DNA from: Candidatus Thorarchaeota archaeon
GTDB lineage: Archaea > Asgardarchaeota > Thorarchaeia > Thorarchaeales > Thorarchaeaceae
Assembly: GCA_011364985.1 (NCBI GenBank)
Contig: RDOC01000003.1
Location: 158,061 to 222,060, forward strand
Direction of reading: 5' to 3'
DNA length: 64,000 bases
The stretch's first letter is position 1, and every line of letters starts with the position of its first letter. Position numbers and translations under genes: made by a program. Under the pieces are notes generated by a model. That model was given only the letters and a program-made list of their open reading frames with translations, did no database searches and was not told where the DNA came from. Positions 6,632 through 30,756 of the stretch are shown in pieces.

Positions 6632-6647
6632 GCAGGCTAATGCCTGC
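6632..6647 (-). terminator. Short hairpin followed by T-rich run downstream of fumarase beta
   Basis: GCAGGC-taat-GCCTGC. Confidence 0.4.
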
Positions 6648-6667
6648 TGTAAATGATATTAAGCATT

Positions 6668-7276: not shown

Positions 7277-7278
7277 TT

Positions 7279-8166
7279 CTATTCTCCCTCCAATGGATGG
7301 GTCACATAGGTGATTTTCAGGTCTTTTGTTATTATTGCCTTACTATGTCTGGCTGCCCAACATTGAACAGCAACTCCAACTGGTAAGGATGCAGGATGAC
7401 GCATTGCATAGTCAACCTTCACACCTAAGACGGTAGTCTTTCCTCCCAAGCCCATTGGTCCTATACCTGTGGAGTTGATTGCTTCCATCAATTCCTCTTC
7501 AATCTGTGCCACTTCAGGCTCTGGGTGCTTGTCGTTGAGGGGGCGCAGAAGCTGTTGCTTGGCAATTTTGATAGCTATGTCGGCCCCTCCACCAATGCCA
7601 ACACCAATAATATTGGGTGCACAGGCCTTGCCCATGTAGTTCATAGCATTGTCAACAACCAATTTCTTCACACCTGTTAGACCTACGCCGGGCTTGAGCA
7701 TTCCAACAATACAAACATTCTCGCTTCCGCCACCCTTAGGAAAGACAATGACTTCAAGCGAATCACCTAGAACTATCTCCCAGTTAATCCATGGAATCTT
7801 GACGCCGGTATTATCGCCAGAGTTGCCACCAACGATTGGATTGACTGCATTGGGACGAAGGGGTACACTCTCGGTGGCGATTCTTGTTGCCTTTTCTAAT
7901 GCGGCCTTGATTTCATCCATGAATGGAAACTTTGACCCAACCTTGACGTAGAATATGATGATTCCAGTGTCTTGGCACATCGGAACACCGGTTCTTGCAA
8001 TCTCGATGTTTTCCAATATTGCAGAGAACTGAGTCTTTGCGGTTGGGTCCGTTTCACGTTCATAAGCAGCTCTTAGCGCCTCCTCAATATCATCGGGCAA
8101 CTTGGTCGCTGCCATCTTGAGAAGACGAACTGCGGTGTCTTGAATGACTTGCATTGGATCCTTCAT
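7279..8166 (-). CDS. fumA: Class I (Fe-S) fumarate/tartrate hydratase alpha subunit
   Basis: PMCQDTG, KGGGSEN, GIGPMGLGG, HPASLPV, QCWAAR. Confidence 0.9.
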   Translation of the reverse strand: MKDPMQVIQDTAVRLLKMAATKLPDDIEEALRAAYERETDPTAKTQFSAILENIEIARTGVPMCQDTGIIIFYVKVGSKFPFMDEIKAALEKATRIATESVPLRPNAVNPIVGGNSGDNTGVKIPWINWEIVLGDSLEVIVFPKGGGSENVCIVGMLKPGVGLTGVKKLVVDNAMNYMGKACAPNIIGVGIGGGADIAIKIAKQQLLRPLNDKHPEPEVAQIEEELMEAINSTGIGPMGLGGKTTVLGVKVDYAMRHPASLPVGVAVQCWAARHSKAIITKDLKITYVTHPLEGE

Positions 8167-8337
8167 TCTATCAGCTTCTAAGTCGTGATTTGCGGTGGAT
8201 TCAACTCCTTCGCACTAACTTCGGAAATTGATAGCTTCCTAATCTTTCTTGCTGTGTGTGTATCTCCTTGAGGAGTATGAAAGGACTATATACGAGCGGC
8301 CCTCCACTATTGAATAGGCGAGATTGGAAGGATTCCG

Positions 8338-8829
8338 ATGACGTTTGAAGCAACATTCGCATCAGCTCTTTCTTTCATAGCGATGTCAATTCTTCTTGTC
8401 ATATATGGGACTCTTGATGTAAAACACCGAGAAGTATCGAACAAATACATGTTTACCGGAATAGTGGCAAGCATGATAATTGTAATCGCGACCGGTCGCC
8501 TTTTTGAACAGCCTTTGCTGCACATCACTGCTATTCTTGTAATGATTCTGCTCTCTTTTGCTTTGTACAGATTGGGGGCCATTGGTGGAGCGGACATCAA
8601 ATCTCTGCTAATAATAGGAGTCTTAAGCCCAGGCATTGAGTTTGCGGTCTGGGAGGACACTATCCTTGAGGGTATATTGGTGTCAGGACTGGAGATCATA
8701 CTCATGCTGACTCTTGGGATCCTGTATTGGCAGCTTCAGGGCAGCAATAGACCAGAAAAGAACGTCGTGCCCCTCATTCCATTTCTGTTATTGGCGTATC
8801 TAGGAGTACAGCTAATTGCATTCCTCTAG
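8338..8829 (+). CDS. A24 family prepilin/prearchaellin peptidase-like membrane protein
   Basis: DVKHREV and IGGAD aspartyl motifs; VPLIPFL C-terminus. Confidence 0.75.
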   Translation: MTFEATFASALSFIAMSILLVIYGTLDVKHREVSNKYMFTGIVASMIIVIATGRLFEQPLLHITAILVMILLSFALYRLGAIGGADIKSLLIIGVLSPGIEFAVWEDTILEGILVSGLEIILMLTLGILYWQLQGSNRPEKNVVPLIPFLLLAYLGVQLIAFL

Positions 8830-8842
8830 TTCTTCATTCTGT

Positions 8843-9208
8843 CTAAAGCAACATGAGGTTCTCAAGGGCAGAGGGAGGGAGAGTAAAGGCGTAGAACAGC
8901 GTCCAGAGAACAACCCAAAGGAGAAGGTAAGTTGGGAGGGAGTTTGTGATGAGTTTCTGGCGACCGCCAATTTCCTCTGGGTCAATCTCCATAATATAGA
9001 CGACCACAAACAAGCTCAAAACGTAGGTCAGAAGTCCAAAGATCAGTCCTCTGCTACCGGCAAAAAGAGGGCCATAGAGCCCGCAGATGACCGCACTTAT
9101 AATGGCGAAGAGTATCTTGACGTAGGTCTGCTGGTCTATGGGCTTGTCGTCCCATCGTCCAAAGATCTTCTTGAATAGGCTTCGAATGGGGTTAATTACT
9201 GAAGACAT
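8843..9208 (-). CDS. EMC6/Rab5-interacting-like 3-TM protein
   Basis: Three TM segments; C-terminal SLPTYLLLWVVLWTLFY resembles the EMC6 GLFTYVLFWTFLY pattern. Confidence 0.6.
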   Translation of the reverse strand: MSSVINPIRSLFKKIFGRWDDKPIDQQTYVKILFAIISAVICGLYGPLFAGSRGLIFGLLTYVLSLFVVVYIMEIDPEEIGGRQKLITNSLPTYLLLWVVLWTLFYAFTLPPSALENLMLL

Positions 9209-9283
9209 TTCTCGACACCTGCTGGGTCTTGCTCTCGGTCAATCATACAGGTTATAAAACGCTCGGTCGGAAGTAAAACTATC

Positions 9284-11305
9284 ATGAAGCAAACAATGAG
9301 CAATATTGACCTACATCTGGCCACGCCGGAGCTTCAGCAGGCTGCAGAAGGATCTTTTATCAAGAATGTATACCAATATGGGGACATATTCATCTTGAAG
9401 CTCTATCAGCCATCAGGAGGCACAAGTCAGCTACTCATTCAGCCAGGGCAGCGTATACATTTGACGGAGTACCGTCGGTCTGCTCCAAGGGTGCCACCAA
9501 AGTTTTGTACGGTACTCCGAAAATACCTTCGTGATAGAAAGGTCGTTTCAATACAACAGTATGACTTGGACCGCATTGTAATCATCGAAATAGGTGACGA
9601 AGATAGTAGGTATAAGATTGTGGCTGAACTCTTTGGCAACGGGAATCTTCTTCTGCTGGACCCTGATGATTCAATCTTTATCGCTATGCGTTATCGTAAG
9701 ATGAAGGACAGGGACATTGTACCAAAGGCAACCTATGTTTTTCCACCTCCAAGGGGTGTTGACATATTCAGTCTGGAACCGAACTCGCTTCAGGACATAA
9801 TAGCGGACTCGATAGCAAGTCTGTTACGCACTCTAGCGAGCAGGCTAAATCTTGACTCGTTATCGTGTGAGGAGATATGTGCCTTGGCAGGTCTGGAACC
9901 CCAAAAAAAAGTGCCAGAGCTTACATCTCAGGAATCGAAGGACTTGCAGGAAGGACTGGACATTTTCGCTAAGAAACTCAAGAACGGAGTTACAGAGCCC
10001 TGCATAGTTCAGGATGAGGATATTGAGGATGAAGAAGAACCTCAGCCAGTAGCTTTTCTTCCATTTGAGTTTGAAATGTATAATGGACGCATTCTGCAGA
10101 CTTTTGATACCTTTAGCAAGGCGATTGATTCGTTTTTCGGAGTATCTGACGCAGAACTAGCGGATGAAGAAGCAAAAGATGCGTTTGCAAATGAGAGAAA
10201 GCGACTTCAGATTATAGTGGACAAACAATCCGAGAGCATTTCAAGGTTGGAAACTAAGGCAAGAGAACTAAGAACTGCAGGAGAAGCAATCTATTCCCAC
10301 TTCCAGATTGTGCAAGAAATCCTGAATACGATTTCAGAGGCCCGTACTGGCGGTCTTTCTTGGGGAGAGATTATGACTAGGATAGAGGATGGAAAGAAGA
10401 AGGGGATTTCATCAGCTGTTGCGATCAAGCGAGTTATTCCATCCCAAGGTAAGATTGAGGTTGATCTCTCAGGCGCAGAAGTTGTCCTCGATATTCGCAG
10501 AAGTCCCCAGGACAACGCAGCAGCTGCCTATGATCAAGCAAAGAAATCCGAAGCAAAGGCAAAAGGAGCACTAAAGCAAATCGAACGAACTAGATCGAAG
10601 TTGGAGGAGCTAGCAGTATCATCAGTCGAGGTTGATAAAATAGCTCCGACAGCAGCAAAAATGAGAAAGAAACTCTGGTATGAAAAATACAGATGGTTTC
10701 TGTCCTCGGAAGAACATCTTGTCATTGGCGGCCGCGACGCAAAGACCAATGAGAGGCTGGCAAAGCGCCAGATGGAACCAAATGATGTCTTTCTCCATGC
10801 CGCACTACACGGCGCCCCATATGTCATAATCAAAGTTCCGGACAAAGCTCCTGGAGAACAGACTCTGAGAGAAGCTGCGCAGTTTGCGGTCACATTTTCA
10901 CGAGCATGGCAAGATGAATTGACCAATGGCGATGCATACTGGGTTGATCCGGACCAAGTGAGTTTCACTCCACCTTCTGGCGAGTATCTGCCAGCTGGAG
11001 CTGTCATGATTTATGGTTCGAAGAACTACATTCGCAATGTGCCCATATCTCTGGCAGTTGGAGTAATGCTTGAGGAGGAGTATGCCATTCCATTCTCAGG
11101 GCCTCACTCTGCGGTATCAGCGCATACGGATTACTATTTGGAAATAGCTCCTGGAAACACGAAGAAAGGACAGCTTGTAAAAGGCATTGTAAGTCGCTTG
11201 CGAAAGATGGTTCCTGAGGGAGAGGCGCATCTAATTGATGAAATACCACAGGAAGAAGTCATGCGAGTGTTGCCTACTGGTAATGGAAGAATACTCACTG
11301 AGTAG
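9284..11305 (+). CDS. rqcH: Ribosome quality-control NFACT protein (Rqc2/RqcH)
   Basis: LRKYL..DRIV..ELFGNGN; WYEKYRWF..IGGRDAKTNE; FLHAALHGAP; SGEYLPAGA. Confidence 0.9.
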   Translation: MKQTMSNIDLHLATPELQQAAEGSFIKNVYQYGDIFILKLYQPSGGTSQLLIQPGQRIHLTEYRRSAPRVPPKFCTVLRKYLRDRKVVSIQQYDLDRIVIIEIGDEDSRYKIVAELFGNGNLLLLDPDDSIFIAMRYRKMKDRDIVPKATYVFPPPRGVDIFSLEPNSLQDIIADSIASLLRTLASRLNLDSLSCEEICALAGLEPQKKVPELTSQESKDLQEGLDIFAKKLKNGVTEPCIVQDEDIEDEEEPQPVAFLPFEFEMYNGRILQTFDTFSKAIDSFFGVSDAELADEEAKDAFANERKRLQIIVDKQSESISRLETKARELRTAGEAIYSHFQIVQEILNTISEARTGGLSWGEIMTRIEDGKKKGISSAVAIKRVIPSQGKIEVDLSGAEVVLDIRRSPQDNAAAAYDQAKKSEAKAKGALKQIERTRSKLEELAVSSVEVDKIAPTAAKMRKKLWYEKYRWFLSSEEHLVIGGRDAKTNERLAKRQMEPNDVFLHAALHGAPYVIIKVPDKAPGEQTLREAAQFAVTFSRAWQDELTNGDAYWVDPDQVSFTPPSGEYLPAGAVMIYGSKNYIRNVPISLAVGVMLEEEYAIPFSGPHSAVSAHTDYYLEIAPGNTKKGQLVKGIVSRLRKMVPEGEAHLIDEIPQEEVMRVLPTGNGRILTE

Positions 11306-12964: not shown

Positions 12965-14281
12965 ATGCCCGCGGATCTTCTTCTAAGAAACGGCATATCA
13001 GTAGTTGCTGGGAAGGAAGCCATCCGCTCAATAGCAATAGAAGCAGGAAAAATACAGCAGATATGTTCCCCTGCGGACGAACCAACTGCAAGGGAAGTAA
13101 TTGATTGCTCGGGAATGTATGTTCTCCCAGGTGCGATTGATATTCACGTTCATCTTCGAGACCTAGGTCAGTCTGAAAAGGAAACTTTTGCCACAGGGAC
13201 GATGGCAGCAGCTGCAGGGGGTATTACTACTGTTGTGGATATGCCCAATTCCATTCCGCCAACTCTGACATCCTTCGATCTCGAGGGGAAAATCGAGTGC
13301 GCACTCATAGACAAATTCGTGAATGTTGGATTCTATGCAGGTATTCCCAAGAATATCGTGGAATTTGATGAGAAAATGATTCCCAATCTATTGGGGCTTA
13401 AGGTGTATCCACACGCTCCGCTTGAGAAAGAGACGAAATACACAAAGGATCATATTCGTGATTGTATGAAATTAGCTGCCAAACACAAGATTCCCCTTCT
13501 ATTTCATCCAGACGCTGCTGCATCTGAGAAAAGAGTATCAGAAAAAGAAGAATTTCTGGAGCTTCATAGTTGCCGGAGCGAAGTAAGATCTTTGAAGAGG
13601 TTTCTCTCTGCAAAAGTGGAGGTCGAGGGAAAGCTACACGTTTGCCACGTGAGTTGCGCAGCGACTGCAGAAATAATTGCTGAGAATAGAGCTGAAGACA
13701 CCTTGACTGCAGAAGTTACGCCGCATCATCTCTTCCTCAGCGATAATGATTTCAGTCATGAGAATGGAACAGCCAAGATGTTGCCACCATTGAGAGGAGT
13801 AGATGATACAAGAGCACTTCAAAACGCACTAACACAAACATGTGCGATTGATTGCATCGTGTCAGATCATGCTCCACACGAGGAACATCGAAAGAAAGCA
13901 CCATTCCTCAAAGCAGCTTCGGGAATCCCAGGTCTCGAAACAACAATTCCTATTATGTTAACGGAGGTCTTCGAGGGAAGAATGAATTGGGTAGACTATC
14001 TTAGATTATGTTGTTCAGGACCTGCAAGAATTCTGGGAATACGTGGGAAAGGTATTATTGCTGAAGGTTATGATGCCGACATTACTGCTGTTATCAAGGA
14101 AGATTCGGTAATTCGTGGTGCTGACTTTCATTCCAAAGCAAAGATTACCCCTTTCGAAGGACGAAAAATCTTTGCGAAGCCAGTAATCACAGTTGTTGGT
14201 GGCGAAATTGTCTATAGCCATGGAGAGTTTCTTGTAGATCCGGGAGTCGCTGGGAATGCACCTGTTCGTAAGGGATGGTGA
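12965..14281 (+). CDS. pyrC: Dihydroorotase (amidohydrolase)
   Basis: PGAIDIHVHLRD, DMPNSIP, HVCHVS, EVTPHHL, SDHAPH. Confidence 0.85.
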   Translation: MPADLLLRNGISVVAGKEAIRSIAIEAGKIQQICSPADEPTAREVIDCSGMYVLPGAIDIHVHLRDLGQSEKETFATGTMAAAAGGITTVVDMPNSIPPTLTSFDLEGKIECALIDKFVNVGFYAGIPKNIVEFDEKMIPNLLGLKVYPHAPLEKETKYTKDHIRDCMKLAAKHKIPLLFHPDAAASEKRVSEKEEFLELHSCRSEVRSLKRFLSAKVEVEGKLHVCHVSCAATAEIIAENRAEDTLTAEVTPHHLFLSDNDFSHENGTAKMLPPLRGVDDTRALQNALTQTCAIDCIVSDHAPHEEHRKKAPFLKAASGIPGLETTIPIMLTEVFEGRMNWVDYLRLCCSGPARILGIRGKGIIAEGYDADITAVIKEDSVIRGADFHSKAKITPFEGRKIFAKPVITVVGGEIVYSHGEFLVDPGVAGNAPVRKGW

Positions 14282-16734: not shown

Positions 16735-17511
16735 ATGCAGCTCTTCTCGGACCCAATTTCAGCAGGAATCATTGCAAGTCTTTTGGCTGGTGCAGCAACA
16801 GGAGTAGGTGCCATTCCTGTGCTACTTGGTGGAAACTACAGTCGAAGAACGCTTGATCTTATGCTTGGATTTGCAGCAGGAGTGATGTTGGCTGCATCTT
16901 CTTTCAGTTTACTTGTTCCTTCCCTAGAACTTGTTACAAACTGGATCGAGGTAATCACCATTGTGGGATTGAGCTTCTCACTCGGAGGGCTCTTTGTGCA
17001 CGTGGCCGATAGATACATTCCACATGAACACTTCAAGAAGGGGGAGGAAGGGCCATCTTCCAGTATGGCAAGGGTTTGGCTGCTGGTCTTAGCAATAACA
17101 ATACACAATTTCCCTGAAGGAATTGCTGTCGGAGTCGCTTTTGGAGGGAATGATTTCATAGCAGGAACATCAGTGGCGCTTGCAATAGGGCTACAGAATA
17201 TGCCGGAGGGGGTGGCTGTTGCCGCACCGCTTGTTCGAGAGGGCTACTCAAGAAAGTATGCTGCAGGTCTTGCACTAATTACAGGACTTGTGGAGCCTAT
17301 CGGAGGAATCTTTGGTGTCACAATCGCTCACTTTCTTCTTCCATTTGGTCTTGCATTCGCCGCTGGAGCAATGATCTTCGTTGTTGGAGAGGAGATGGTT
17401 CCTGAGAGCCATTCCGGTGAGAATGCTCGATTGGCGACTTGGGGATTAATGATAGGATTCGTAATCATGATGATTATGGACAATATCTTTGAGTTCCTTC
17501 TACTAGGGTGA
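16735..17511 (+). CDS. ZIP family (GufA-like) metal transporter
   Basis: GFAAGVML, HNFPEG, QNMPEG, FAAGAM. Confidence 0.9.
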   Translation: MQLFSDPISAGIIASLLAGAATGVGAIPVLLGGNYSRRTLDLMLGFAAGVMLAASSFSLLVPSLELVTNWIEVITIVGLSFSLGGLFVHVADRYIPHEHFKKGEEGPSSSMARVWLLVLAITIHNFPEGIAVGVAFGGNDFIAGTSVALAIGLQNMPEGVAVAAPLVREGYSRKYAAGLALITGLVEPIGGIFGVTIAHFLLPFGLAFAAGAMIFVVGEEMVPESHSGENARLATWGLMIGFVIMMIMDNIFEFLLLG

Positions 17512-18794: not shown

Positions 18795-18938
18795 TACAAT
18801 GAATCACCCAATAAATAACAGGCCATCCATGCTCATTAACGTTGATATTCACGTACCTTAGCATATCTTGATTCCTAGAGATTTGGTTTCGAGCTAAACA
18901 GCAACGTTAATATTCGAACATGCGACCTCAGCGGAACA

Positions 18939-19017
18939 GCCGCCGTAGCTCAGCCGGTAGAATCCTGTTTCCTTAGGGAACAGCATGTCGAAGATGACAG
19001 CCTGTCAAGTTGTTGGT
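18939..19017 (+). pseudogene. Truncated tRNA-Asn-derived pseudogene (anticodon GTC) with one BHB intron at 22/23 (18961-18992); T-arm and acceptor 3' strand absent
   Basis: GCCGCCGTAGCTCAGCCGGTAG|intron|GATG ACAGC CTGTCAA GTTGT TGGT matches the spliced 5' part of the 29245-29469 tRNA; upstream promoter also homologous. Confidence 0.75.
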
Positions 19018-19157
19018 TCCATTTTCTCACTACAGAGGAAACATGATTCTTCCTTATGCAACATTGATTATATCGAGTTATCACTCAGTAAAGGACGAGA
19101 ATATTCGTTAGGAGAACAGGGGAATTCAATGCAAAGTGCTCCATCTGGAACTCCTAT

Positions 19158-20838: not shown

Positions 20839-21007
20839 ACCTCCGATTGTTTACATTTCTGTGTCCGAAAGAAACTCAAATTGGAAACCCCATACCTGAA
20901 TTTCATCTGCCACGATAAGGTAAACAAACACAAATGATACCATAGCATGTATTTATACCCTTTGATACTTATTTCATATTACTGTCATAGTGTTTCGTGA
21001 CTCGAAA

Positions 21008-21235
21008 GATGAGAAGAAGATTGCTGAGAGCCTAGGCTTCCAAATAACGCTTGCACCAACAGCTGTGAAGTACTTCCCAAGAACCGAGAGAGTATCTGTG
21101 AATTGGGTTGCCATAACTACAACAAAGGAAGATGCAGAACGCTGGGCTGACATCTGACCTCCAAATGATAAGCGAAAACGAGATGCTGTAGAGTTCTGGC
21201 TTAGAGAAGGAGCTGAGAAATGGCTTGATTCCTGA
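21008..21235 (+). pseudogene. Relic C-terminus of a paralog of the LAGLIDADG-like protein at 26593-28653
   Basis: Frame 2 reads DEKKIAESLG..P..VKYFPRTERVSVNWVA..DI*PPNDKRKR versus DEIRIVRKLG..P..IRYHERSGRVSVAWTA..APSNDVIKR; internal TGA at 21155-21157. Confidence 0.75.
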
Positions 21236-21241
21236 AAGAAG

Positions 21242-21260
21242 TAGGAAGCGCCACCGGGAG
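21242..21260 (+). repeat. att-like direct repeat, distal copy of tRNA-Asn 3' end
   Basis: TAGGAAGCGCCACCGGGAG, identical to 29238-29256. Confidence 0.85.
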
Positions 21261-21331
21261 AACTTGCTTCGGAACTATTATATGAACAAGAACAGAAATC
21301 GACTTGTTGGCGGGTTAGTTTCACACAAAAG

Positions 21332-22726
21332 ATGGGGCCTAATCATATGTTTGACTATTTTCGTTGGCAAGGAGTTCCCACCTATCCCTTGACTCAATCA
21401 GATAAACCTCGAACTGCAGTCTTCTGGGATGCTGAGAATGTTAGTGAGATCACAGGGGCCGATGTCGTAGAGAATTTCAATACTTGGTTGGAAAATGACT
21501 ATGATATTAATGCGAAATTTGCATTTGCTGACTGGAGTGGCCCCTATAGAGAGGTTGCTAATGCGCTAAACAGAATTGGATTTGACTTCATTCACGTTCC
21601 TGACGATTTGAAGGATAGTACTGATTATCAAATGGCCGCCTACATGATTGATTGGCTTCTACGTTCACCAGAAACCTCCTCCTATGTGATTGTTTCTGGT
21701 GATGCAGGGTTCGCACTAATTATGAGAGCGCTGCAAAAACAGGGAAAGAAGGTAACAGTGGTTAGTAATCCAGTAGTCACCCGACCGGAGTACATGATTT
21801 ATGCTGATAGATACGAGGACATTGACCGATTCAAGCCAAAGGCATTGAGAATAGACCCTCTGAAAGACGAAAAGGGAAAGAAGCTGACACCCGACGAGCT
21901 GAAAGAGGTGGCTGTACTCAGATTGTTGGAAACCATTGCAAGACTAGAAGGAGAGAACAGACCGACATATGACAAATATGTCAAAGTAATGTTATCCAGA
22001 TACAATCCAGATATTTCCTTTGGACGACCTGGCTCTTATAATTGGGAGGAAGCAATTACTGAATCCCTTTTTGATGGATTGATTGTGCATGAAGGGCAAG
22101 GAGTCACCGCACAGCTTAAGCTGACTAAGAAAGGAGCTGAAATGAGCGAAGGCCGTTCGGCCTCCGTTGAGAGCGCCCTCGAAAAGCTGGGAGAGATTGT
22201 CGAAACAATGTATGAGAAGGGGCAGCACACAGGAATGGAATCAGTAGTTCATGAGGTGAGGAAGGCCAAAATTGACTATGTGGATTTTGGCTTTCAGAAA
22301 TTCGGCGACTTTTCAAGAGCTGCAGAAGGTCGCAATATAATCAGAATAGAAACTAAAGAGAGCAGCACTCCTATTATCAAACCAGTTTATTCTGAAGAAA
22401 GGGCTCGGATTTGGTATGAAACAAACCTAGAGAACTACTTCGGAAAAGGAGCAAGAATACCCCAATCAAGATTTGTTCAGAGGACAATACAGTTTCTCTA
22501 TCAGTATGATGCTGGTTTCTCAAAACTTGAGTCATATCTAAGCGATGAGAAAACACAGAAAAGCTATGATGCAATTCTTGAAAACAGCGGAGTTTCTTTC
22601 ATTCCGCCATATGAAAAAGTTCTTCTCACGCTTCTACTGGGATTGGGCATAGATTGCCAAGAAGCACTTGAAATTGTAAACCGAGAATTGGCTCCGCTCG
22701 GTTATGAACTCAAGTGTCCGGAGTAG
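21332..22726 (+). CDS. NYN domain ribonuclease with LOTUS/OST-HTH domain(s)
   Basis: AVFWDAEN, STDYQM, IVSGDAGF..LQKQGKKV; DYVDFGFQKFGDF. Confidence 0.85.
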   Translation: MGPNHMFDYFRWQGVPTYPLTQSDKPRTAVFWDAENVSEITGADVVENFNTWLENDYDINAKFAFADWSGPYREVANALNRIGFDFIHVPDDLKDSTDYQMAAYMIDWLLRSPETSSYVIVSGDAGFALIMRALQKQGKKVTVVSNPVVTRPEYMIYADRYEDIDRFKPKALRIDPLKDEKGKKLTPDELKEVAVLRLLETIARLEGENRPTYDKYVKVMLSRYNPDISFGRPGSYNWEEAITESLFDGLIVHEGQGVTAQLKLTKKGAEMSEGRSASVESALEKLGEIVETMYEKGQHTGMESVVHEVRKAKIDYVDFGFQKFGDFSRAAEGRNIIRIETKESSTPIIKPVYSEERARIWYETNLENYFGKGARIPQSRFVQRTIQFLYQYDAGFSKLESYLSDEKTQKSYDAILENSGVSFIPPYEKVLLTLLLGLGIDCQEALEIVNRELAPLGYELKCPE

Positions 22727-22738
22727 ATAACTGCTTGG

Positions 22739-23557
22739 CTAGTCGGTCCGTGCTCTTGATTCTTCTTGCTTGAGAAATTCATCCAGGATTCGTACGGACT
22801 CACTCCTGTTGCGGAAATAATACACTATCAAGAAAGGAATAATTAATCCTATACTGATTGCCCACACTAGTGGTTGACGTATTACTTGGCTAAGGAACGG
22901 CATATAGACAGGTTGGTTATTCAAAGTTGACAAAACAAGTAGTAGATTCCCAACATAGACCATAAGAGTGACATCAAATCCCTTTGGGACAGCCAAATCA
23001 AGCATTTCATTTAGTGTTATTCTTCGACCATCCTCTTCGTCAGTCAGAGCATATTTCCTTCTACTGCTTTTTTCAAGAGATTCGAACCAACGGTGGTGAA
23101 GATGCTTCGTGTACTTCTGAATATAGTAGACCGTTGGAGTGGATACCAAGAATAGTATAACTAAATCAACCATCCCAGGTTCTTGCACTGCAAAGAATAG
23201 AGAAGAAACCAAGAACCAGAAATATAGAGGTATTAGGGCGACCAAGGTAGCAACTAATGTTAGGCCATAGATGTAAAGCAGCTGGCAAACCATCAATCTG
23301 AATGTGATCGACTTCCACTTTTTTGCCAATTCATACGAGAAAGAAAGTACTCCACCTATGATGAACACAACCAAACCCAGATTGAAGCTTAGTGCCAGAT
23401 TATCAATCTGAAAAATCGCAAATGCTAGACTGGCCAGTTCAATTGCGAGGAAATAGATTCCAAAGTTCTCGTCGAAGTCCTCAACTCTTGAAGGGTCTGT
23501 TTGGGAGTTTATGAAGTCCCTTACTATTGCCACTTGCTTTGCTGTTGGTTTCATCAC
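22739..23557 (-). CDS. Hypothetical multi-pass membrane protein
   Basis: 272 aa with about six hydrophobic segments. Confidence 0.65.
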   Translation of the reverse strand: MMKPTAKQVAIVRDFINSQTDPSRVEDFDENFGIYFLAIELASLAFAIFQIDNLALSFNLGLVVFIIGGVLSFSYELAKKWKSITFRLMVCQLLYIYGLTLVATLVALIPLYFWFLVSSLFFAVQEPGMVDLVILFLVSTPTVYYIQKYTKHLHHRWFESLEKSSRRKYALTDEEDGRRITLNEMLDLAVPKGFDVTLMVYVGNLLLVLSTLNNQPVYMPFLSQVIRQPLVWAISIGLIIPFLIVYYFRNRSESVRILDEFLKQEESRARTD

Positions 23558-23874
23558 ATACCCCTTGCTTATCCTTATTTACTACACAGAGTCATATAAA
23601 CAGGCACTTCAGAGATTATTGAAGCGACTTTGCTATTGAACCAGTAAAGCTAGCATCCTATATTAACCAAAAGCTGCTTCGATGTGTGTGTAAAGAGTGC
23701 TCATAGGCCTTTATGTTATGTAAGGGATAATAAGATACGCTCGTTTTTGGGGGCGGGTGTTTAATTTACTTCTTTTGAAATTTTGATGATTATATACTGT
23801 GATTGGATTGACACCAAAGGAATTTGGATTCATGTAACATAGAATTCTCACAGAGAAGATTGTAGAGGATAGTA

Positions 23875-26592
23875 TTGCAATTGTTTGGGCCATGGAAAGG
23901 AGAAGAATTAGTAGGAGCTCTAGAAGTGCTGGAGATTCCTGAAACATACATGTTGCAATCAGATTCGGGGAGTCAGCACCGTTCGTACGGCAAGTCATTC
24001 ATAAGTATTTTACGAGGAATGATTCTAGCCAAAACGCCTGTAGCTCTACGTCTTGAACGAACTCACGGGAAGACTCGAGTACTGCTCTTGACATGGGCAA
24101 GAAACCAAGAAGATCTGCAAAGGTTTCTGGACTCACTCTCCTCGAACTTAGTAGCTCATCTTCCCAAGTTCAAACTGAAGCGGCATGAGTTATTCCAAGG
24201 ATTTTCATCTCATCCAAACATCCAAGGCATTAATGCCTGTCTAGTGGGCGAGCCAGAAATCACAGAGGAAAAAGATGATTCGCCAAAACCAATGGATGTT
24301 GTTGGAGAGTGCATCCAGAACCTCTCAAATGCAATCCTTCAGGTCTTTGTCACTCCCACTAAAACCAATCGTGGCAAAGTGAGAGGTTTGGAACGCGCCT
24401 ATGAACGGGCGATGGAACAGTCACAGCAGGTAGTTTCCGCTGCCAGCATGTTCTCGCCAGACATTCAACAGTCCACCACACGGGTTAGTGCTAGTGCTTC
24501 ACGTGATGCTGAACGTCTTTCCAGACAGATCAAACGAATGAGTAGCCGTTACTTGGGAAAAGTGTCAGTTGTTGCGACCTGCTGGCACCAAGATAAGAGA
24601 GTTGCAGAAACAGAGGCCCGACGACTGCTGTCCGTTCTCATGAGTAGCGTCACCCCTGCTGACAAGGAAGAAGACCTTCGAGTTGAGATTAAGAAGAAGG
24701 CCAAAGACTTTGAGAAGGCTCTGGCTGGAAGACCCATTGGGAAAGAAACCATTCTTGTCCCTGAGGAGATAGTCAACTACTTCACACTCCCACGTGTAGA
24801 CATGGGAATCAAGGTGTCACGTCGAGAGGACTTCTCTACGGCGGGTATTGACCTAACGAAACTTGAGAACAATGAGAATGTGCCTCAGCCCAGTATCAGC
24901 CCGGCCCCTATGTCAGACTGGAAACCTAGGACAGCAACAAGATGGTCACCCGCAGAGGATGATACCATATGGAGATTCCCCCTTGAGAAGCTCCTTCTTC
25001 TTGGCTATGCAATTCGGAACAATGCACCTCAGAAACAGGAGCCCTATGGTCTTGTTCCACGAATTCTGGGCTCCCACGTCGGCATCTATGGGAACACCGG
25101 CTACGGCAAGACCACCACCGCCGTCACGCTCATTGCTCAGGCCTACAGGAACAATGTCATCCCAATCATTCTCACTCCCGGAAACGTTGACGACTGGCGA
25201 GTCCTTAGGGACCTCTACGATGAGTTTCGTATCTTTACTGCCGGAAATCCCGATGTGGCACCCCTGCGATACAACATGTGGAATGTCCCGGACGGTGTCC
25301 CCATTGGCAAGTACATCGATAGGATGGTGGACGTCCACACCGCTGCTCTCCCAACAGACGGCGTCATCTCCATGCACTTTGACGATGTCTTCAACACTAT
25401 GTACGAGAACTGTGGCTGGTCACGCATGGGGAACGTCCGAGGTCGTCCCATCCTGCTCTCGGACCTGTATGAGGCCGTACATGAGGTTGCGGACACTCAC
25501 CTGAAGTACGGCGATGAGATGCGCAGGGACTTTCATGGTGCACTCGATGCGCGCCTTCGCAGCATTCTCAGAAACGACATTCTGGTGGACATGTTCAACA
25601 CGCCCAGTGGGCTCACGATTCCCGAACTCCTCTCTCACCCGACCATCATTGAGACCCGTGACCTCTCTCCTGAAGACCGGGCGTTGCTTACTGGCGCCCT
25701 TACGGTGGGCATCAGCGAGTACCTCATTGCGAATCCGCGGAAGACGGTCAGTCATCTACTGGTCATTGAGGAGGCCCATCACTTCCTCAAGCGTCCACGA
25801 ATGGCTGGAGGCTACGCTGAGCCCACCTCCCAGCAGAAGGCCACGGAGAACATCACTGAGATGCTACGGACTCAACGCGGGACCGGTCTAGGCCTTATGC
25901 TCATCGACCAACTTCCCAGCAGTCTTCCTCTGGACATTGTCAAGCTCCCCAGCAGTGTCATCATTCACACACTGACCGACGTGGAGGAGCGTACTCTGGT
26001 TGGCAGGCAAGCCCTGTGTAACGACGCGCAGATCGAGCACATTGGCGGCATGGGTATCGGGGAGATCGTGGCACGAGTGCAGACGCAGACCGTTCCGTCT
26101 AACGTGCAGGTGGTGCCGCTGGATTATGTACTCACGCAGCCTCTGCCCAAGCGCCCTTGGACCGATGCGATGATCAGGAGTGCGATGCGGCCGGTCTTCG
26201 AGGGCAATCCTCACCTCGACGAGAGTCATCCGCTCTCTGGGGAGCTTCGGGGCGCCCTGAAGGGCATCTCGGCGCCGGCACGTATGGAACTTCGCCCCGA
26301 GGCACAACTGGTCAGCCTGTCCAGCAGGCAGGAAACCGACATCTCGGAGATCGTCAACACGCCCGCCTTTGTCGATGCTTACTTGGACCGTGTGGGGCTG
26401 GCGTCGCAGGGTGACCCCGCTGCTGTGGCTCGGTTGCTGACGGTGGTGGCCGGGAAGTTCTGCTCGGATGGGGTGCAGGTGGTTCCCTTCGCTGAGCGCC
26501 TTCTTCTGCATGCGGCAGGGATGCTTCAGGAGCCTCGAGAGACCGCCGTTCTTGGGGGGATTCTTCTGGCAATCAGGGGTACTAGTGTGTGA
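23875..26592 (+). CDS. HerA/VirB4/FtsK-like P-loop ATPase
   Basis: Walker A GNTGYGKT, Walker B LLVIEEAH, R..GLGLMLIDQLPS. Confidence 0.85.
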   Translation: MQLFGPWKGEELVGALEVLEIPETYMLQSDSGSQHRSYGKSFISILRGMILAKTPVALRLERTHGKTRVLLLTWARNQEDLQRFLDSLSSNLVAHLPKFKLKRHELFQGFSSHPNIQGINACLVGEPEITEEKDDSPKPMDVVGECIQNLSNAILQVFVTPTKTNRGKVRGLERAYERAMEQSQQVVSAASMFSPDIQQSTTRVSASASRDAERLSRQIKRMSSRYLGKVSVVATCWHQDKRVAETEARRLLSVLMSSVTPADKEEDLRVEIKKKAKDFEKALAGRPIGKETILVPEEIVNYFTLPRVDMGIKVSRREDFSTAGIDLTKLENNENVPQPSISPAPMSDWKPRTATRWSPAEDDTIWRFPLEKLLLLGYAIRNNAPQKQEPYGLVPRILGSHVGIYGNTGYGKTTTAVTLIAQAYRNNVIPIILTPGNVDDWRVLRDLYDEFRIFTAGNPDVAPLRYNMWNVPDGVPIGKYIDRMVDVHTAALPTDGVISMHFDDVFNTMYENCGWSRMGNVRGRPILLSDLYEAVHEVADTHLKYGDEMRRDFHGALDARLRSILRNDILVDMFNTPSGLTIPELLSHPTIIETRDLSPEDRALLTGALTVGISEYLIANPRKTVSHLLVIEEAHHFLKRPRMAGGYAEPTSQQKATENITEMLRTQRGTGLGLMLIDQLPSSLPLDIVKLPSSVIIHTLTDVEERTLVGRQALCNDAQIEHIGGMGIGEIVARVQTQTVPSNVQVVPLDYVLTQPLPKRPWTDAMIRSAMRPVFEGNPHLDESHPLSGELRGALKGISAPARMELRPEAQLVSLSSRQETDISEIVNTPAFVDAYLDRVGLASQGDPAAVARLLTVVAGKFCSDGVQVVPFAERLLLHAAGMLQEPRETAVLGGILLAIRGTSV

Positions 26593-28653
26593 GTGGTTCG
26601 CATGGCGGGACGTATCGAGAGCAGGGGCCGCGGTGAGAGGTCTGAGATACGGGATGCTGGCAGTGATGTGCGGGAGCTTCGGGAGGTACGGGACGCGGAG
26701 GAGGTTCAGGTTGAAACCGGGGAGGATGAGCATGCCGTTGAGCGGATTGAGCGGAGCGATGCGCAGGAACCCGTGGAGCGGAGGGTCGTTGATGCGATTC
26801 AGGAACTGGATGCTGAGGAAGGGCGTGAGAGCGACACGCGGAAACGGATTGCTGGTGCCCTCAGGGAGCTGGAGGAGATAGAGGGCGGGTCCGTCAGGGA
26901 CAGGGTCGAGCGGGCAGTTGCGGAGGTCAAGGAGGAAGTTGAGAAACCGGACATTCCTCCTGAGAAGGACTTTGAGGATGCAAGAGAGGTAGTAGAGAGA
27001 GCCAAGGAGGTTGAAGAGGCAAACGTAGAGGCCAAGGAGGAAGAGAGTAGGGTATCAGAGTCGTCACCCAGAGAGGCGTTTGAGGATTCATCAGAACAAC
27101 GGGCGGAGGGGGAGAAGCGCAAGGGGCTTGAGAGGGTTCCCGATGAACAGGTGCGCGAAACCTTCTCGGAGTTGGAATCGAAGGAGGGTGAACCACGAAG
27201 CTGGGCTTCGGAGGAGATTGCAGAAGGGCTGAAGCGGCTCGCTCCGGAAGACGCAGAGGTTTCTCGGGTCTATTGTGCAGACATTCGAGAGGGATTGGGC
27301 CTGACGCCGGAGGAGGTCGAGTCCTTCACGAATGAGTTTCAGCAGGCGAAGGAGGCACTTGAGGCAGAGGGGGAGGTTCGATGTGGCATGGTGGATGAGA
27401 AGGTCTACATTTGGAGGCCAGACTTGGACCCAACCCAGCTTGAGAATGCTTATGGCAATCTCTACTACTATTTCCGTGATGAAGAAGCATTTGAGAAGTA
27501 TATCTGGGATATTGCGTGTCCTCTGGGAATTGAGGGGGATGATGAGAAGCAGAACATTGAACATCTTCAGAAGCTAGCCTCTCAGATGTTGACTGAGCCT
27601 ACGAGTGAATACTGCGTGAATCCTAGACTCAATCGTATTCGTGGAGATCATGTCCATTTTTTTAATAATTTGTCTGGAAAGACACTGTCTGAGTTGGAAG
27701 GTGAGATTTCAAAGATCACTAAGAAGGGTGGTCGAGGAGGAATTAGGAATCCGAGGTTTCCTGAAGGCGAGGAGTTGGAGATTGCATTGGCTCGCCTTAC
27801 TGCTGTCGCTGTCAGCGATTGCCACCTGAAAGCAAATGGAACCCTTGAGTATGCTGAGGGGGAGATAAGTCGGATACGTATAGTTGAGAGAGATCTTCAG
27901 GTGTTTGGAGATATTAGAATGAATCCAAAGTTAAAAGAGAGAGAGAATTTCTATGAAGTCTTCTTGCCTTCTCCATTCGGAATCGTGTTATTACACCTAG
28001 GAATACCTTCAGGTGACCGGACGGTCCAGAATCCAGGGCTTTATCCGGAACTTAGGGAGTTCTCAGTAAAGGCCCAGTGTGGATTTATTGAGAATCTAAT
28101 CCCTCAAGATGGAACCATTAGCAGAAAGAATGTTCAGTGGACTCACTCAAACGCCCTACATGCAGGCGATAAAACAGAAATCTATGGAATCGAGCCCAAA
28201 GTGGGGCGCAAAGAAATCAATTTGATAATTGAAGAGGGGAAGAGAGAGAAACACAGTTGGGTACTTAATTACGGAAAACTGGAAGAGCTTAGACAATCTG
28301 ATTCAGATAATCTTAGACATATTGCAGACAGTCTATGGAACATTGTTTATGAAAATCCCAACCGACTAGTTGAGGATGAGATAAGAATTGTTAGAAAGTT
28401 GGGTGTAAATTATAATGCAAAACCATACACAATCCGATATCATGAGAGGAGTGGGCGGGTTTCTGTTGCTTGGACAGCAGAACCAGAGAGTGTTCTTGAA
28501 TCAATCAAGCTAGCGATGATTGCCCCTTCTAATGATGTAATTAAAAGACAGATCATGAGGGATTTGATTGCAAATCATCCTAAATACATGAGAAGAGCAC
28601 TTCGGCAATTCGAAAAGAACGGTATAGAGGTTTATCAGTGGTGGACATCATGA
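26593..28653 (+). CDS. Acidic E/R-rich N-terminus fused to a two-motif LAGLIDADG-like endonuclease domain
   Basis: LARLTAVAVSDCHL and FIENLIPQDGTI at the spacing of DOD-type LAGLIDADG motifs; abuts the ATPase stop (alternative start ATG 26602). Confidence 0.65.
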   Translation: MVRMAGRIESRGRGERSEIRDAGSDVRELREVRDAEEVQVETGEDEHAVERIERSDAQEPVERRVVDAIQELDAEEGRESDTRKRIAGALRELEEIEGGSVRDRVERAVAEVKEEVEKPDIPPEKDFEDAREVVERAKEVEEANVEAKEEESRVSESSPREAFEDSSEQRAEGEKRKGLERVPDEQVRETFSELESKEGEPRSWASEEIAEGLKRLAPEDAEVSRVYCADIREGLGLTPEEVESFTNEFQQAKEALEAEGEVRCGMVDEKVYIWRPDLDPTQLENAYGNLYYYFRDEEAFEKYIWDIACPLGIEGDDEKQNIEHLQKLASQMLTEPTSEYCVNPRLNRIRGDHVHFFNNLSGKTLSELEGEISKITKKGGRGGIRNPRFPEGEELEIALARLTAVAVSDCHLKANGTLEYAEGEISRIRIVERDLQVFGDIRMNPKLKERENFYEVFLPSPFGIVLLHLGIPSGDRTVQNPGLYPELREFSVKAQCGFIENLIPQDGTISRKNVQWTHSNALHAGDKTEIYGIEPKVGRKEINLIIEEGKREKHSWVLNYGKLEELRQSDSDNLRHIADSLWNIVYENPNRLVEDEIRIVRKLGVNYNAKPYTIRYHERSGRVSVAWTAEPESVLESIKLAMIAPSNDVIKRQIMRDLIANHPKYMRRALRQFEKNGIEVYQWWTS

Positions 28654-29240
28654 ATATGAATGAGATGATACAAAAAGCTGCTGGGATTGTTACAAACATA
28701 CTTGCAAGGATTGAATCACGGCAATTGCCCCTGAAAGATGTGAAGATTAGAGTGAGTGAGAAACTGGAGGGGGCAGACGATATTAATGCGACTGTGGATA
28801 AAGCAATAGAGTGGGCACTAGATAATTGGATAGTGGATAAGGTCTTGGACTATGATGAGGATGACGAGGAATTTGCTGGAGAGCTAGTATGGTTCCTACG
28901 TGCAACAACAGAAGAAGAAGCCGAGTATCTAGGTCGCTTGTCGAAAGCAGAGCATGCTCTACTAAATATCCTGAGAAATGCTGAAAACGAAAGCAGACTA
29001 GGAGTAATTCGGGCAAATGAAGCTCTTCAGAGATTGCGTAAACTAGGGTTTGATTTAAAGTCTGCACCATCTATTATTGGAAAGACAAGTAGTTTCTTCA
29101 GGCCGGAGAATGGAAAGCTGATTGAGTTCAAATATCTACTTTCTGAAGAAGAGAAATCTGAGGAGTATGTAACAGCTCTGAAAGAACTTGATGAGAAAGA
29201 ACGCAGGAAACAAGAACGTTTGGATAGGATGAATGAATAG
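28638..29240 (+). CDS. Hypothetical acidic protein, translationally coupled to the LAGLIDADG-like gene; stop codon lies inside the att repeat
   Basis: ATGA overlap at 28650-28653; TAG at 29238-29240. Confidence 0.7.
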   Translation: MVDIMNMNEMIQKAAGIVTNILARIESRQLPLKDVKIRVSEKLEGADDINATVDKAIEWALDNWIVDKVLDYDEDDEEFAGELVWFLRATTEEEAEYLGRLSKAEHALLNILRNAENESRLGVIRANEALQRLRKLGFDLKSAPSIIGKTSSFFRPENGKLIEFKYLLSEEEKSEEYVTALKELDEKERRKQERLDRMNE

Positions 29241-29256
29241 GAAGCGCCACCGGGAG
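29238..29256 (+). repeat. att-like direct repeat, tRNA-proximal copy
   Basis: TAGGAAGCGCCACCGGGAG. Confidence 0.85.
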
Positions 29257-29469
29257 GATCATCGATCGCTCCGGAAATCGAAGCGAAGCTCGAACCTCCG
29301 ACCATTCGTCGCACACCACGGAATGTGATGCACTACAACTGTCTGGCTCTCAACCAGCCGGCTGAAAGATAACAGGCTTTAGCGGCATGGCGCAGTACGC
29401 GTCCACTGCTGTCGCTTTCGATGTAAGGCTCCCTTGGGAACCTCACCCTACCGACTGAGCCACGGTGGC
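29245..29469 (-). tRNA. tRNA-Asn(GTT) interrupted by five BHB introns (22/23, 28/29, 37/38, 43/44, 59/60)
   Basis: Exons 29469-29448, 29416-29411, 29378-29370, 29340-29335, 29304-29289, 29258-29245 join to a 73-nt cloverleaf GCCACCG TG GCTC AGTCGGTA GAGC G ACAGC CTGTTAA GTTGT TGGTC GGAGG TTCGAGT CCTCC CGGTGGC G. Confidence 0.88.
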
Positions 29470-29494
29470 TGAGTTGGCTGAGGCTGCGGATTAC

Positions 29495-29510
29495 AATATT
29501 AACATTGCTG
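29495..29510 (-). promoter_or_regulatory. Putative BRE/TATA-like promoter of the tRNA-Asn gene
   Basis: CAGCAATGTTAATATT ending about 25 nt upstream; CAGCAACGTTAATATT at the same place upstream of the 18939 copy. Confidence 0.6.
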
Positions 29511-29579
29511 TTGAGGTTCGCAACCAATGACATATCTGAGAAGATAACCAGAGAGTAGAGAGGACTCATGAGAGCCAAC

Positions 29580-29865: not shown

Positions 29866-30756
29866 ATGGATGATTCGGGTTTGAGTTTCGAAGAACGTAA
29901 TGAGGCCCTAGATAAGGGAGTGGAATATCTCCGACACGTAACACTGGTGATTTTAGCAGCTTGCGGAGCATTCTGGACAGCCACAAGAGCAGATGAAGCT
30001 GCTTTTCCTTGGATAATCATGGTTTACGGCGGCGCCATTTCTTTTACTCCAGATAGAAGAAGGAGATTCCTTAGTACTGCCAAGAGAAGATTTATTCGCC
30101 TTGACGGCTAGTTGCAAGTAGATTGGGTGGAGAGGAGAAGAATTCCAAAGGAATACTATCGAGATAGTAAGAGTGAAGAAATAGAACGGATGATTAGAAG
30201 AGATCCCCACTACAAAGATTGGATTGTGATGCGTTTTCGCTCCTCGGGCGGATTATCAGATTATGAAGACATGCTTGAGATTCAAAATGCGAAAGGGAAA
30301 AGTGTCACAGAATTATCAGAGTCAGAAGTTGACCTCTTGATCTCATCTGGAACCTTGTTTTTTGTACTTGAAAATTGTCAGAGAATGGGATTTTTCAGAA
30401 GATTCGGTTCTCGTACACCTTATGTCATACTCCTTGTACTATTTGCAGGTATGATCTTTGCCTTTGTTGTAGGGACTGTTTTCTTTGAATACATCAGGAC
30501 GCTACCAGCTGAGCAAGGATTGCTCGGATTCATTCTCTTCTTCGCGGTACTCTTCTGCTTTGCAGGAATCCTATGTTTTTCACAAAGAAACAATCATAGA
30601 CGAGAGCAGGAAGCTGATTTTGCTAGAAGTAAGCAGGAGCCTATCTCAGACGAGTTACTTGATGATATTCTTGATAAAACAGAGAAGCTTGCAGATTTGA
30701 AACAAAACGATCCATCAGAATACATCCATAGGTTGAGAGAACTGGCTGATGACTAG
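29866..30756 (+). pseudogene. Membrane protein split by a single in-frame TAG (30109-30111)
   Basis: ORFs 29866-30111 and 30112-30756 are contiguous in the same frame. Confidence 0.6.

Follow-up and report, generated by a model that had tools for sequence, protein, structure and literature searches.

A decayed gene tail outside an 8-kb insertion points to successive LAGLIDADG-family occupants at a tRNA-Asn end in a Thorarchaeota archaeon

What leaves a gene-like fragment stranded on the far side of an 8-kb block, next to a second copy of a tRNA end? The question is raised by a short frame in a 64,000-nucleotide stretch of Candidatus Thorarchaeota archaeon DNA (assembly GCA_011364985.1, contig RDOC01000003.1; the whole stretch is called the window here), which comes from a metagenome assembly that is 74% complete. 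An earlier note took this frame to be the decayed remnant of a divergent previous element with a LAGLIDADG-like gene, pushed outward when a newer element of the same family entered the same tRNA gene. We consider it likely that the frame is what remains of the 3′ end of a former LAGLIDADG-family gene, left by a succession of occupants at the end of a tRNA-Asn gene; with much less assurance, we infer that the later insertion was nuclease-promoted.

Table 1 Features of the tRNA-Asn locus (window coordinates).
Feature	Position	Strand	Basis or remark
Zip transporter gene	16735–17511		
Pseudogene of a second, oppositely oriented tRNA-Asn	18939–19018	+	87.5% identical to intact (+) tRNA-Asn of same-genus G064, L068
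Relic, read as the C-terminal tail of a P0033-type LAGLIDADG-family gene	21005–21235	+	About 71 last codons and native stop
Spacer AAGAAG	21236–21241		6 nt, from relic stop codon to 19-nt repeat
Distal 19-nt repeat copy, read as displaced original tRNA-Asn 3′ end (12 nt) plus 7 nt of 3′ flank	21242–21260		Exact repeat
Inserted element of about 8 kb, five genes	21261–29237	+	Collinearity with empty-site loci; flanking 19-nt repeats
NYN-domain protein	21332–22726	+	Element gene
272-aa protein	22739–23557	−	Element gene
HerA/FtsK-like ATPase	23875–26592	+	Element gene
686-aa LAGLIDADG-family protein (P0001), resident	26593–28653	+	Acidic variable N-terminus and conserved C-terminal 347 aa
200-aa protein	28638–29240	+	Element gene; stop codon is the TAG inside the 19-nt repeat
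Proximal 19-nt repeat copy	29238–29256		Exact repeat; overlaps last tRNA-Asn exon, ends 3 nt before T-loop intron
tRNA-Asn(GTT), functional-looking, five intervening segments of about 30 nt	29246–29469	−	ARAGORN on spliced sequence, 74 nt

The frame lies where the earlier note placed it, about 230 bases long, in the orientation of the resident 686-aa gene and with only the AAGAAG spacer between its last codon and the distal repeat. Translation of 20990–21238 (+) reads VFRDSKDEKKIAESLG...RVSVNWVA...ADI*PPNDKRKRDAVEFWLREGAEKWLDS*, with an in-frame TGA at 21155–21157 and a terminal TGA at 21233–21235. The tBLASTn comparison proposed in that note, with the resident protein as query, matches 21005–21181 to residues 594–652 (36% identity over 59 aa); the E value of 1.6e-4 in the window and 0.004 in the whole 1.7-Mb assembly is significant, but marginal taken alone. 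The 42 homologues that we gathered come without exception from Thorarchaeota or ‘Promethearchaeota’ metagenome genomes, and Pfam recognises no domain on the conserved part of any of them. A profile of the 348-aa domain at the C-terminus was made from 36 homologues, with the window’s own protein left out. A search of the six-frame genome with this profile recovers the relic (21005–21223, 61 bits, E 5.5e-18, profile positions 257–329), confirming the homology. P0033, a protein from another genome, matches 21005–21217 with residues 709–779 of 779, through its final residue (56% identity, E 1.4e-16), and the likeness extends to DNA, where the relic aligns with the 3′ end of the P0033 gene at 62% over 199 nt (E 6e-11). 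That a non-coding frame should look like this by chance, which the weak pairwise tBLASTn values by themselves would allow, is therefore excluded by the independent profile match, the identity to the very end of P0033 and the DNA-level homology, and with the relic also lying in the same place beside a tRNA end as its relatives we regard its probability as negligible.

The relic is not a close copy of the gene that now occupies the site. Among 78 family C-termini compared, it is about 36% identical to the resident protein and 54–60% identical, over 68–69 aligned residues, to a group comprising P0030, P0033–P0041 and L026. A tree of the relic segment places the relic, together with a fragment from locus L029, within this same group (support 0.958). 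The relic belongs to a subfamily distinct from that of the resident gene and was not derived from it, in keeping with the divergence that had been proposed by eye.

Sequence comparison also shows that the relic is a pseudogene stump, the last 71 or so codons of a gene of about 780–850 codons. It keeps only positions 257–329 of the 348-position profile, and the window holds no further pieces of a P0033-type gene. The P0033-type subfamily normally has a short tail after PPND..KR, and the terminal stop is therefore native. The internal TGA aligns with a Cys or Ser codon in ten relatives, consistent with a change of one base. Both truncation and in-frame stop thus bear out the decay that the earlier note had described. 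What survives is the extra C-terminal domain (β-hairpins and helices, with two hairpins), outside the nuclease core. Selenocysteine at the internal TGA was considered and rejected: the stump is headless and 71 codons long, other relatives carry Ser at the position, and Rfam returns no SECIS or other RNA family match for the relic frame.

Could the fragment nevertheless be alive, as a small stand-alone gene for the C-terminal domain, encoding for example a DNA-binding protein that blocks the site from cutting or insertion? C-terminal-only open frames of 105–163 aa, with no internal stops, do recur in other genomes, some of them preceding a homologue of the ~190-aa partner gene, and the part retained here is just such a hairpin-plus-helices domain away from the nuclease core. 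The relic differs from them in its internal TGA, which the lack of a SECIS match leaves as a stop; its sole possible start is a GTG that would give 55 aa, and no partner gene follows. We give this explanation very little credence. The relic itself is ordinary dead, non-functional DNA, and its value lies in the record that it keeps of insertion and succession.

That record is read from the repeat and the tRNA gene. The 19-nt repeat, TAGGAAGCGCCACCGGGAG, is identical at 19/19 positions at 21242–21260 and 29238–29256 (0.01 matches expected by chance), with no additional copies in the window when up to 3 mismatches are allowed. It covers the 3′ end of a real tRNA gene, as had been claimed: spliced from 29469 to 29246 (−), the sequence is identified by ARAGORN as tRNA-Asn(GTT), with perfect 7-bp acceptor pairing and intervening segments at 29417–29447, 29377–29408, 29341–29369, 29305–29334 and 29260–29289. 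Splicing was done manually, guided by the one-intron tRNA-Asn of a same-genus genome. The unspliced gene is missed by ARAGORN and Rfam, which detect just tRNA-Glu and tRNA-Met in the window; multi-intron tRNAs escape both. An exact repeat of 17–19 nt made of a tRNA end is the mark expected when two molecules exchange conservatively at sites of identical sequence.

Other Thorarchaeia supply the unoccupied form of the locus. Loci L042, L043, L044, L045, L046 and L026 have the order Zip (+), solitary family gene (+), tRNA-Asn (−), and in five contigs with P0033-type genes at this place the ATPase and 190-aa genes are absent. We reconstructed the empty site of the window by joining 20990–21260 to 29257–29540, that is, by removing 21261–29256. 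The product aligns with L042 and L026 as a single HSP, query 31–398 across the junction at 271 (64% over 401 nt, E 1e-37), and is collinear with L042, L026 and L045, which belong to other species and serve as a proxy rather than as an allele. Alignment in one block across the junction indicates that relic and tRNA were once contiguous and that 21261–29256 is an insertion with a 19-nt duplication. The 8-kb segment is on these alignments a later insertion at the tRNA-Asn 3′ end, and the outward push of the older material is upheld; a chimeric join in the metagenome assembly is a remote, formal alternative. One part of the earlier claim changes: there was an earlier occupant from the family, but it was probably a solitary gene and not a multi-gene element. 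C-terminal family fragments also directly abut tRNA-Asn in L029 (which is syntenic) and in L039, so decay from the 5′ side occurs without a new insertion too.

These loci bear equally on the idea that there was no serial insertion, and that tail and 19-mer are a local duplication or arrived with the incoming segment, as an orphan C-terminal cassette or through homing or gene conversion. Polymorphic toxin and nuclease loci are known to accumulate displaced C-terminal fragments, and the element has a sharp compositional break (59% GC in 25.0–27.4 kb, against 46% for the window). The fragment, however, lies 5.4 kb upstream, not downstream, of the intact gene, shares only 36% identity with it, and together with the tRNA is collinear with loci of other genomes where the 8-kb block is missing; position, identity and collinearity rule out the orphan cassette of a polymorphic locus. 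LAGLIDADG enzymes are homing nucleases, and homing leaves no direct repeats, so it would not account for the 19-nt pair. We consider an origin of this kind highly improbable.

How, then, did the 8-kb segment enter? Pfam, PHROGs and PADLOC find no integrase or recombinase family among the element’s five genes, and return no matches for the 686-aa, 200-aa and 272-aa proteins. An SSV-type split integrase was rejected: the 200-aa frame stops at the TAG of the repeat in both configurations, and no gene is split. Inspection by eye reveals no terminal inverted repeats at 21261 and 29237, which makes the 19-mer unlike the target-site duplication of an element with such termini. Beside tRNA-Asn, in the Zip neighbourhood, the genes of close relatives of the resident protein still form a trio with those of a HerA-like ATPase and a ~190-aa protein.

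The family protein itself is predicted to adopt a nuclease fold. An AlphaFold2 model of the 347-aa conserved domain (pLDDT 91.8, pTM 0.88) shows a double LAGLIDADG fold (αββαββα, twice, with two interface helices) followed by a C-terminal domain. Foldseek against the PDB gives 45 matches at E ≤ 1e-3, including LAGLIDADG enzymes, intein endonucleases and WhiA; the top matches comprise 7qsu (2.4e-6), I-Tsp061I (3.2e-6), PI-SceI, many I-DmoI entries and WhiA. Compared with I-DmoI, I-Tsp061I, PI-SceI and WhiA (PDB 2vs7, 2dch, 1vde and 8dy7), the model has the same fold (Foldseek E 2e-6 to 1e-4, target TM 0.5–0.6) and, as in the LAGLIDADG enzymes, two motif helices each ending in a conserved Asp; its C-terminal helical, DNA-binding-like addition is a predicted likeness to WhiA. 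The first motif helix (54–70) closes on Asp70, present in all 37 sequences, and the second (153–167) on Asp167, whose conservation is at least 90%; their contexts are SDCH and PQDG. Both Asp residues may be catalytic, a role assigned from their position rather than from residue-level superposition, and the model is consistent with an active two-motif LAGLIDADG enzyme. Unlike the enzymes and WhiA, to which its identity is just 10–14%, the family carries an additional hairpin domain, its N-termini are long and vary between members (acidic or HTH), and it is not encoded in introns or inteins.

Sequence profiles tell a different story. The Pfam LAGLIDADG_1/2/3 profiles essentially miss the family, with no match for the window’s protein and LAGLIDADG_3 matching only three out of 37 (best E 0.04). 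When the family profile was searched against PDB sequences, only noise came back. The ‘LAGLIDADG-like’ label of the earlier note accordingly holds by predicted fold (AlphaFold2 and Foldseek) and not by Pfam: as modelled, this is a LAGLIDADG family by fold only and not by curated sequence family. The model of a full-length solitary member (644 aa, pLDDT 81) has helical and winged-helix-like N-terminal parts before the LAGLIDADG-fold core, and no second catalytic-looking domain. An ESM Atlas search with the P0033 N-terminus yielded no usable match. A full-text literature search found no description of the family, nor of LAGLIDADG genes at Asgard tRNA genes.

The family is present in 52 of 87 Thorarchaeia genomes, at up to 8 places per genome and with many C-terminal fragments, and in all seven sampled genomes of a second Asgard family (7/7); outside these two groups it is nearly absent among 151 sampled genomes of the phylum. 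A stable-RNA gene lies at most 1.5 kb downstream of the family gene in 13 of the 19 best loci: tRNA-Asn in seven, tRNA-Lys, tRNA-Val, tRNA-Tyr and an untyped tRNA in one each, and 5S rRNA in two. One further locus overlaps tRNA-Ala. The expectation that more copies would be found beside tRNAs therefore holds in other genomes (Asn, Lys, Val, Tyr and Ala) but not in this one, where the neighbour is a 5S rRNA gene, directly upstream of which lies a three-frame family pseudogene (C15:40100–41123); a weak family relic lies at C15:20056–20355.

One of these loci repeats the pattern of the window. In L058 (genome G020), a lone family gene (8648–10582) has an exact 17-nt copy of a tRNA 3′ end on either side (8203 and 10596). 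The tRNA is Ser-like, with a perfect 7-bp acceptor, on a reading made by eye. An older 24-nt copy of the repeat, with 2 mismatches, lies at about 4996, 3.2 kb further out, and cargo genes (a nitroreductase and an LRR protein) fall between the older and the newer repeats. L058 is an independent second case of a serial array; its tRNA-proximal unit contains nothing but the family gene. That the LAGLIDADG-like gene forms the core of these insertions, as the earlier note had supposed, agrees with its being the sole gene common to both occupants of the window’s site, solitary elsewhere and alone in the L058 unit.

Such arrays are a minority. Direct repeats of at least 14 nt between the RNA-gene side and the upstream side were absent from 22 further family loci. 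With direct repeats in 2 of about 25 loci examined (the window and L058), most family copies are old, arrived otherwise or have lost the distal repeat. No further tandem relics were found in 18 loci of 5–20 kb. A ‘fragment’ in G015 was considered as a tail relic and set aside as a recent internal duplication.

Taken together, these observations give the following course of events, whose first steps the sequence comparisons show. The ancestral locus had the order Zip, P0033-type gene (+), tRNA-Asn (−), the stop codon of the gene lying within a few bases of where the tRNA ends. A segment of about 8 kb, carrying a member of a different subfamily, a HerA-like ATPase and a 200-aa protein, now lies exactly at the tRNA 3′ end; the 19-nt sequence on both of its sides shows that the old gene tail and tRNA end were displaced 8 kb outward. 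Whether before or after the insertion, the old gene shrank to its ~71 final codons, in which a Cys/Ser codon became TGA. The exchange itself was presumably conservative: a free element copy, probably circular, would have carried the 19-bp site and recombined there with the identical site of the tRNA gene. In the least certain step, the element’s LAGLIDADG-type nuclease would cut the ~19-bp site, and host functions would join or recombine the ends. Family members would thus succeed one another at the end of the same stable-RNA gene, the relic marking a displaced earlier occupant.

We propose the nuclease as promoter of the insertion because no integrase is present and because its gene is the sole constant, always tRNA-proximal component. 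The 19-bp site is about as long as known LAGLIDADG targets. Given the relic scenario, that a family nuclease recognises this site and provokes the exchange strikes us as plausible, if slightly on the doubtful side of even. We know of no precedent for conservative insertion driven by a nuclease.

The explanation that competes best with a nuclease leaves the origin of the relic unchanged. In it, the insertion was made by a conventional or novel recombinase acting in trans, supplied by the host, by another element or from the unassembled 26% of the genome, and the family protein serves in homing, in addiction, in defence together with the HerA-like ATPase, or in WhiA-like DNA binding. Tyrosine integrases classically leave behind a short exact repeat of a tRNA 3′ end, an integrase could have gone unassembled in a genome that is 74% complete, and the sole Resolvase-domain ORF found lies on contig C21, outside the element’s contig; for the other roles, the pairing of a HerA-like ATPase with a nuclease resembles defence modules. 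Yet PF00589 is found nowhere in the 1.7-Mb, 74%-complete assembly and is present in 14 of 14 control genomes. In each of the two repeat-bounded units, moreover, the family gene lies nearest the tRNA, the place usually taken by an integrase, and one unit contains no other gene; the family is also strongly tied to stable-RNA gene ends, at the 13 of 19 loci described above. We take a recombinase in trans seriously as a tentative, clearly less-than-even prospect.

Going further with the nuclease, one could cast the LAGLIDADG-fold protein as the insertion enzyme of a so far undescribed class of integrase-free archaeal elements. Such elements would use a site of ~17–19 bp at a stable-RNA end (tRNA or 5S rRNA) and insert conservatively with the formation of repeats; the unit inserted might consist of the gene alone or of 8 kb that include a HerA-like motor, and rival subfamilies would displace each other. 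The heavy intron load and the tRNA-Asn duplication and loss at the locus would be part of the same conflict. We think a generalisation of this breadth unlikely.

Parts of this picture are well known. Serial integration at one tRNA 3′ end, with repeated att copies and decayed fragments, occurs in the ‘gene capture’ of Sulfolobus and in tRNA-linked island arrays of bacteria. The window shares with these systems the tRNA 3′-end repeat, the newer element at the tRNA and the decayed older remnant outside the distal repeat, and L058 provides a second array of the kind. It differs from them in that neither occupant has a tyrosine, serine or split integrase, that a LAGLIDADG-fold gene is tRNA-proximal, and that the older occupant apparently consisted of one gene only. 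Homing endonuclease genes that stand free next to a tRNA gene are also known, examples being SegB in the tRNA cluster of phage T4 and ‘intronless homing’; SegB is a GIY-YIG enzyme of a phage. There, as here, a nuclease gene outside any intron or intein lies against a conserved stable-RNA gene, and such genes are patchy, multi-copy and often decayed. In contrast to SegB, the present family has a LAGLIDADG fold and Asgard archaeal hosts, with two units bounded by 17–19-nt tRNA-end repeats, one of them with 8 kb of cargo that includes a HerA-like ATPase. What sets the locus apart is the combination: a repeat-bounded insertion at a tRNA 3′ end, with no recombinase, in which a LAGLIDADG-fold gene is the sole constant tRNA-proximal component across two successive occupants. 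The literature search yielded no account of this combination.

The relic matters in that it gives the ‘before’ state of the site and a dated sequence of events. It establishes that the block of 8 kb, which lacks an integrase, was inserted at the tRNA-Asn 3′ end, and it shows that two distant members of one LAGLIDADG-fold family held the same tRNA end successively. With this successive occupation, the family protein becomes the foremost candidate for carrying out the site-specific step. If the protein binds or cuts the 19-bp site, archaeal elements would have a new route into tRNA genes, and homing-type nucleases would be linked to the unusual intron load and to a broken tRNA-Asn duplicate at the locus. 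If it does neither, the relic is an unremarkable remnant of the turnover that goes on at a tRNA hotspot.

The broken duplicate is the remnant of the second tRNA-Asn gene (Table 1). Homology to the upstream region of the live gene begins at 18883; the anticodon has changed from GTT to GTC, and the T-arm and 3′ acceptor strand (~25 nt) are missing. The counterpart in G064 is intact, has one intron and encodes CCA. With this remnant included, the 19–30 kb interval looks like a two-ended hotspot whose history is longer than the two events recorded by the relic. At the tRNA-Thr(GGU) locus of Caldiarchaeum subterraneum, an orphan tRNA fragment and an intact, intron-richer copy flank a mobile insert, and the authors (Sugahara et al. 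2012, PMC3293823) tie the disruption of the tRNA and its gain of introns to the entry of a mobile element. Compared with that locus, the tRNA-Asn locus differs in that no recombinase was found and in having the displaced tail of a nuclease gene in its record.

Related loci carry further traces of the tRNA, with inverted 5′ tRNA fragments left of the module and several (+) copies of the tRNA-Asn 3′ end right of it, sharing a TTCTTCT-like flank. A single weak (+) copy of that 3′ end occurs in the window, at 30025.

Upstream of the element the window holds a second tRNA-Asn, a pseudogene inverted relative to the live gene and 87.5% identical to the intact one-intron (+) tRNA-Asn of a same-genus genome (G064; locus L068, ~6233-6339). 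Its anticodon is GTC, and it lacks the T-arm and 3' acceptor strand, the remaining end reading ...GGTT followed by CCATTTTC.

In loci carrying the trio of HerA-like ATPase, LAGLIDADG-fold family nuclease and ~190-aa partner (L003, L004 and L006), the promoter and 5' part of tRNA-Asn recur in inverted orientation, as one or two copies per locus, directly upstream of (+) genes. Exact runs against the live tRNA reach at least 53 nt; no direct repeat was found at these copies in the three loci. Copies of the tRNA-Asn 3' end, on the (+) strand, lie beyond the live (-) gene, frequently straight after gene ends; they include CCA and continue into a common T/C-rich flank (YTTCTTCT-like). The window's copy is not significant by itself (0.15 expected by chance). 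These 3'-end copies look like older att scars of the opposite-strand tRNA-Asn, or a cassette array.

Coordinates of tRNA-derived and family-related features in the window and in other loci
Feature	Location	Strand	Remarks
tRNA-Asn pseudogene (second copy)	window 18883-19018	+	inverted relative to live tRNA-Asn; similar to G064 tRNA-Asn
Inverted tRNA-Asn promoter + 5' part	L003 6032-6210		
Inverted tRNA-Asn promoter + 5' part	L004 5059-5129, 6271-6343		
Inverted tRNA-Asn promoter + 5' part	L006 4365-4432, 6151-6218		
tRNA-Asn 3'-end copy	window 30025-30050	+	
tRNA-Asn 3'-end copies	L004 18351, 19088, 19505, 21072	+	
tRNA-Asn 3'-end copies	L006 15015, 18918	+	
tRNA-Asn 3'-end copies	L003 22887; L042 ~12625	+	
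Second serial array	L058 (G020:C2) 4996-10760		
Decayed family paralogue + 5S rRNA	G000 contig C15:39893-41123	-	RNA at L002 8893-9044

A second serial array is present in another genome (L058). There, a lone family gene is flanked by 17-nt repeats, and a 3.2-kb outer block encoding a nitroreductase, a 129-aa protein and an LRR protein ends at an older 24-nt repeat with two mismatches. Neither ARAGORN nor Rfam called the Ser-like multi-intron tRNA (-) of this locus.

Family frames comprising the C-terminal domain only (105–163 aa, free of internal stops) recur in many genomes, for example at L027, L028, L032 and L034. In several cases the gene that follows is homologous to the ~190-aa partner, so these frames may be short forms that still function and not relics. 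Different in kind from the tail relics is a recent duplication at L071 (G015:C10), where a ~196-nt internal piece of a family gene occurs twice in near-identical form, 7 kb apart (6520-6716 and 13515-13711).

The decayed paralogue on C15, broken into three frames with stops, has a 5S rRNA gene immediately downstream. This gene may be interrupted, given its length of 152 nt (usually ~120) and an Rfam score only just above threshold. Family genes lie immediately upstream of 5S rRNA in two other genomes (L016 and L021).

Within the element, GC content is 59% at 25000-27400, against 46% for the whole window. This stretch takes in the 3' part of the HerA-like gene and, in the 686-aa gene, the region for the acidic N-terminus; the conserved nuclease half of the latter gene is AT-richer. 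The element's 272-aa gene (22739-23557 (-)) has a homologue (53% identity) at L003 15869-16666 (+), on the opposite side of tRNA-Asn; cargo has therefore been shuffled around tRNA-Asn between genomes.

Pfam Phage_integrase (PF00589) has zero matches in the window's whole assembly, G000 (1.7 Mb, 74% complete), so that even a XerA-like gene was not found there. ARAGORN predicts a tRNA-SeC on contig C11 of this assembly (352835-352925).
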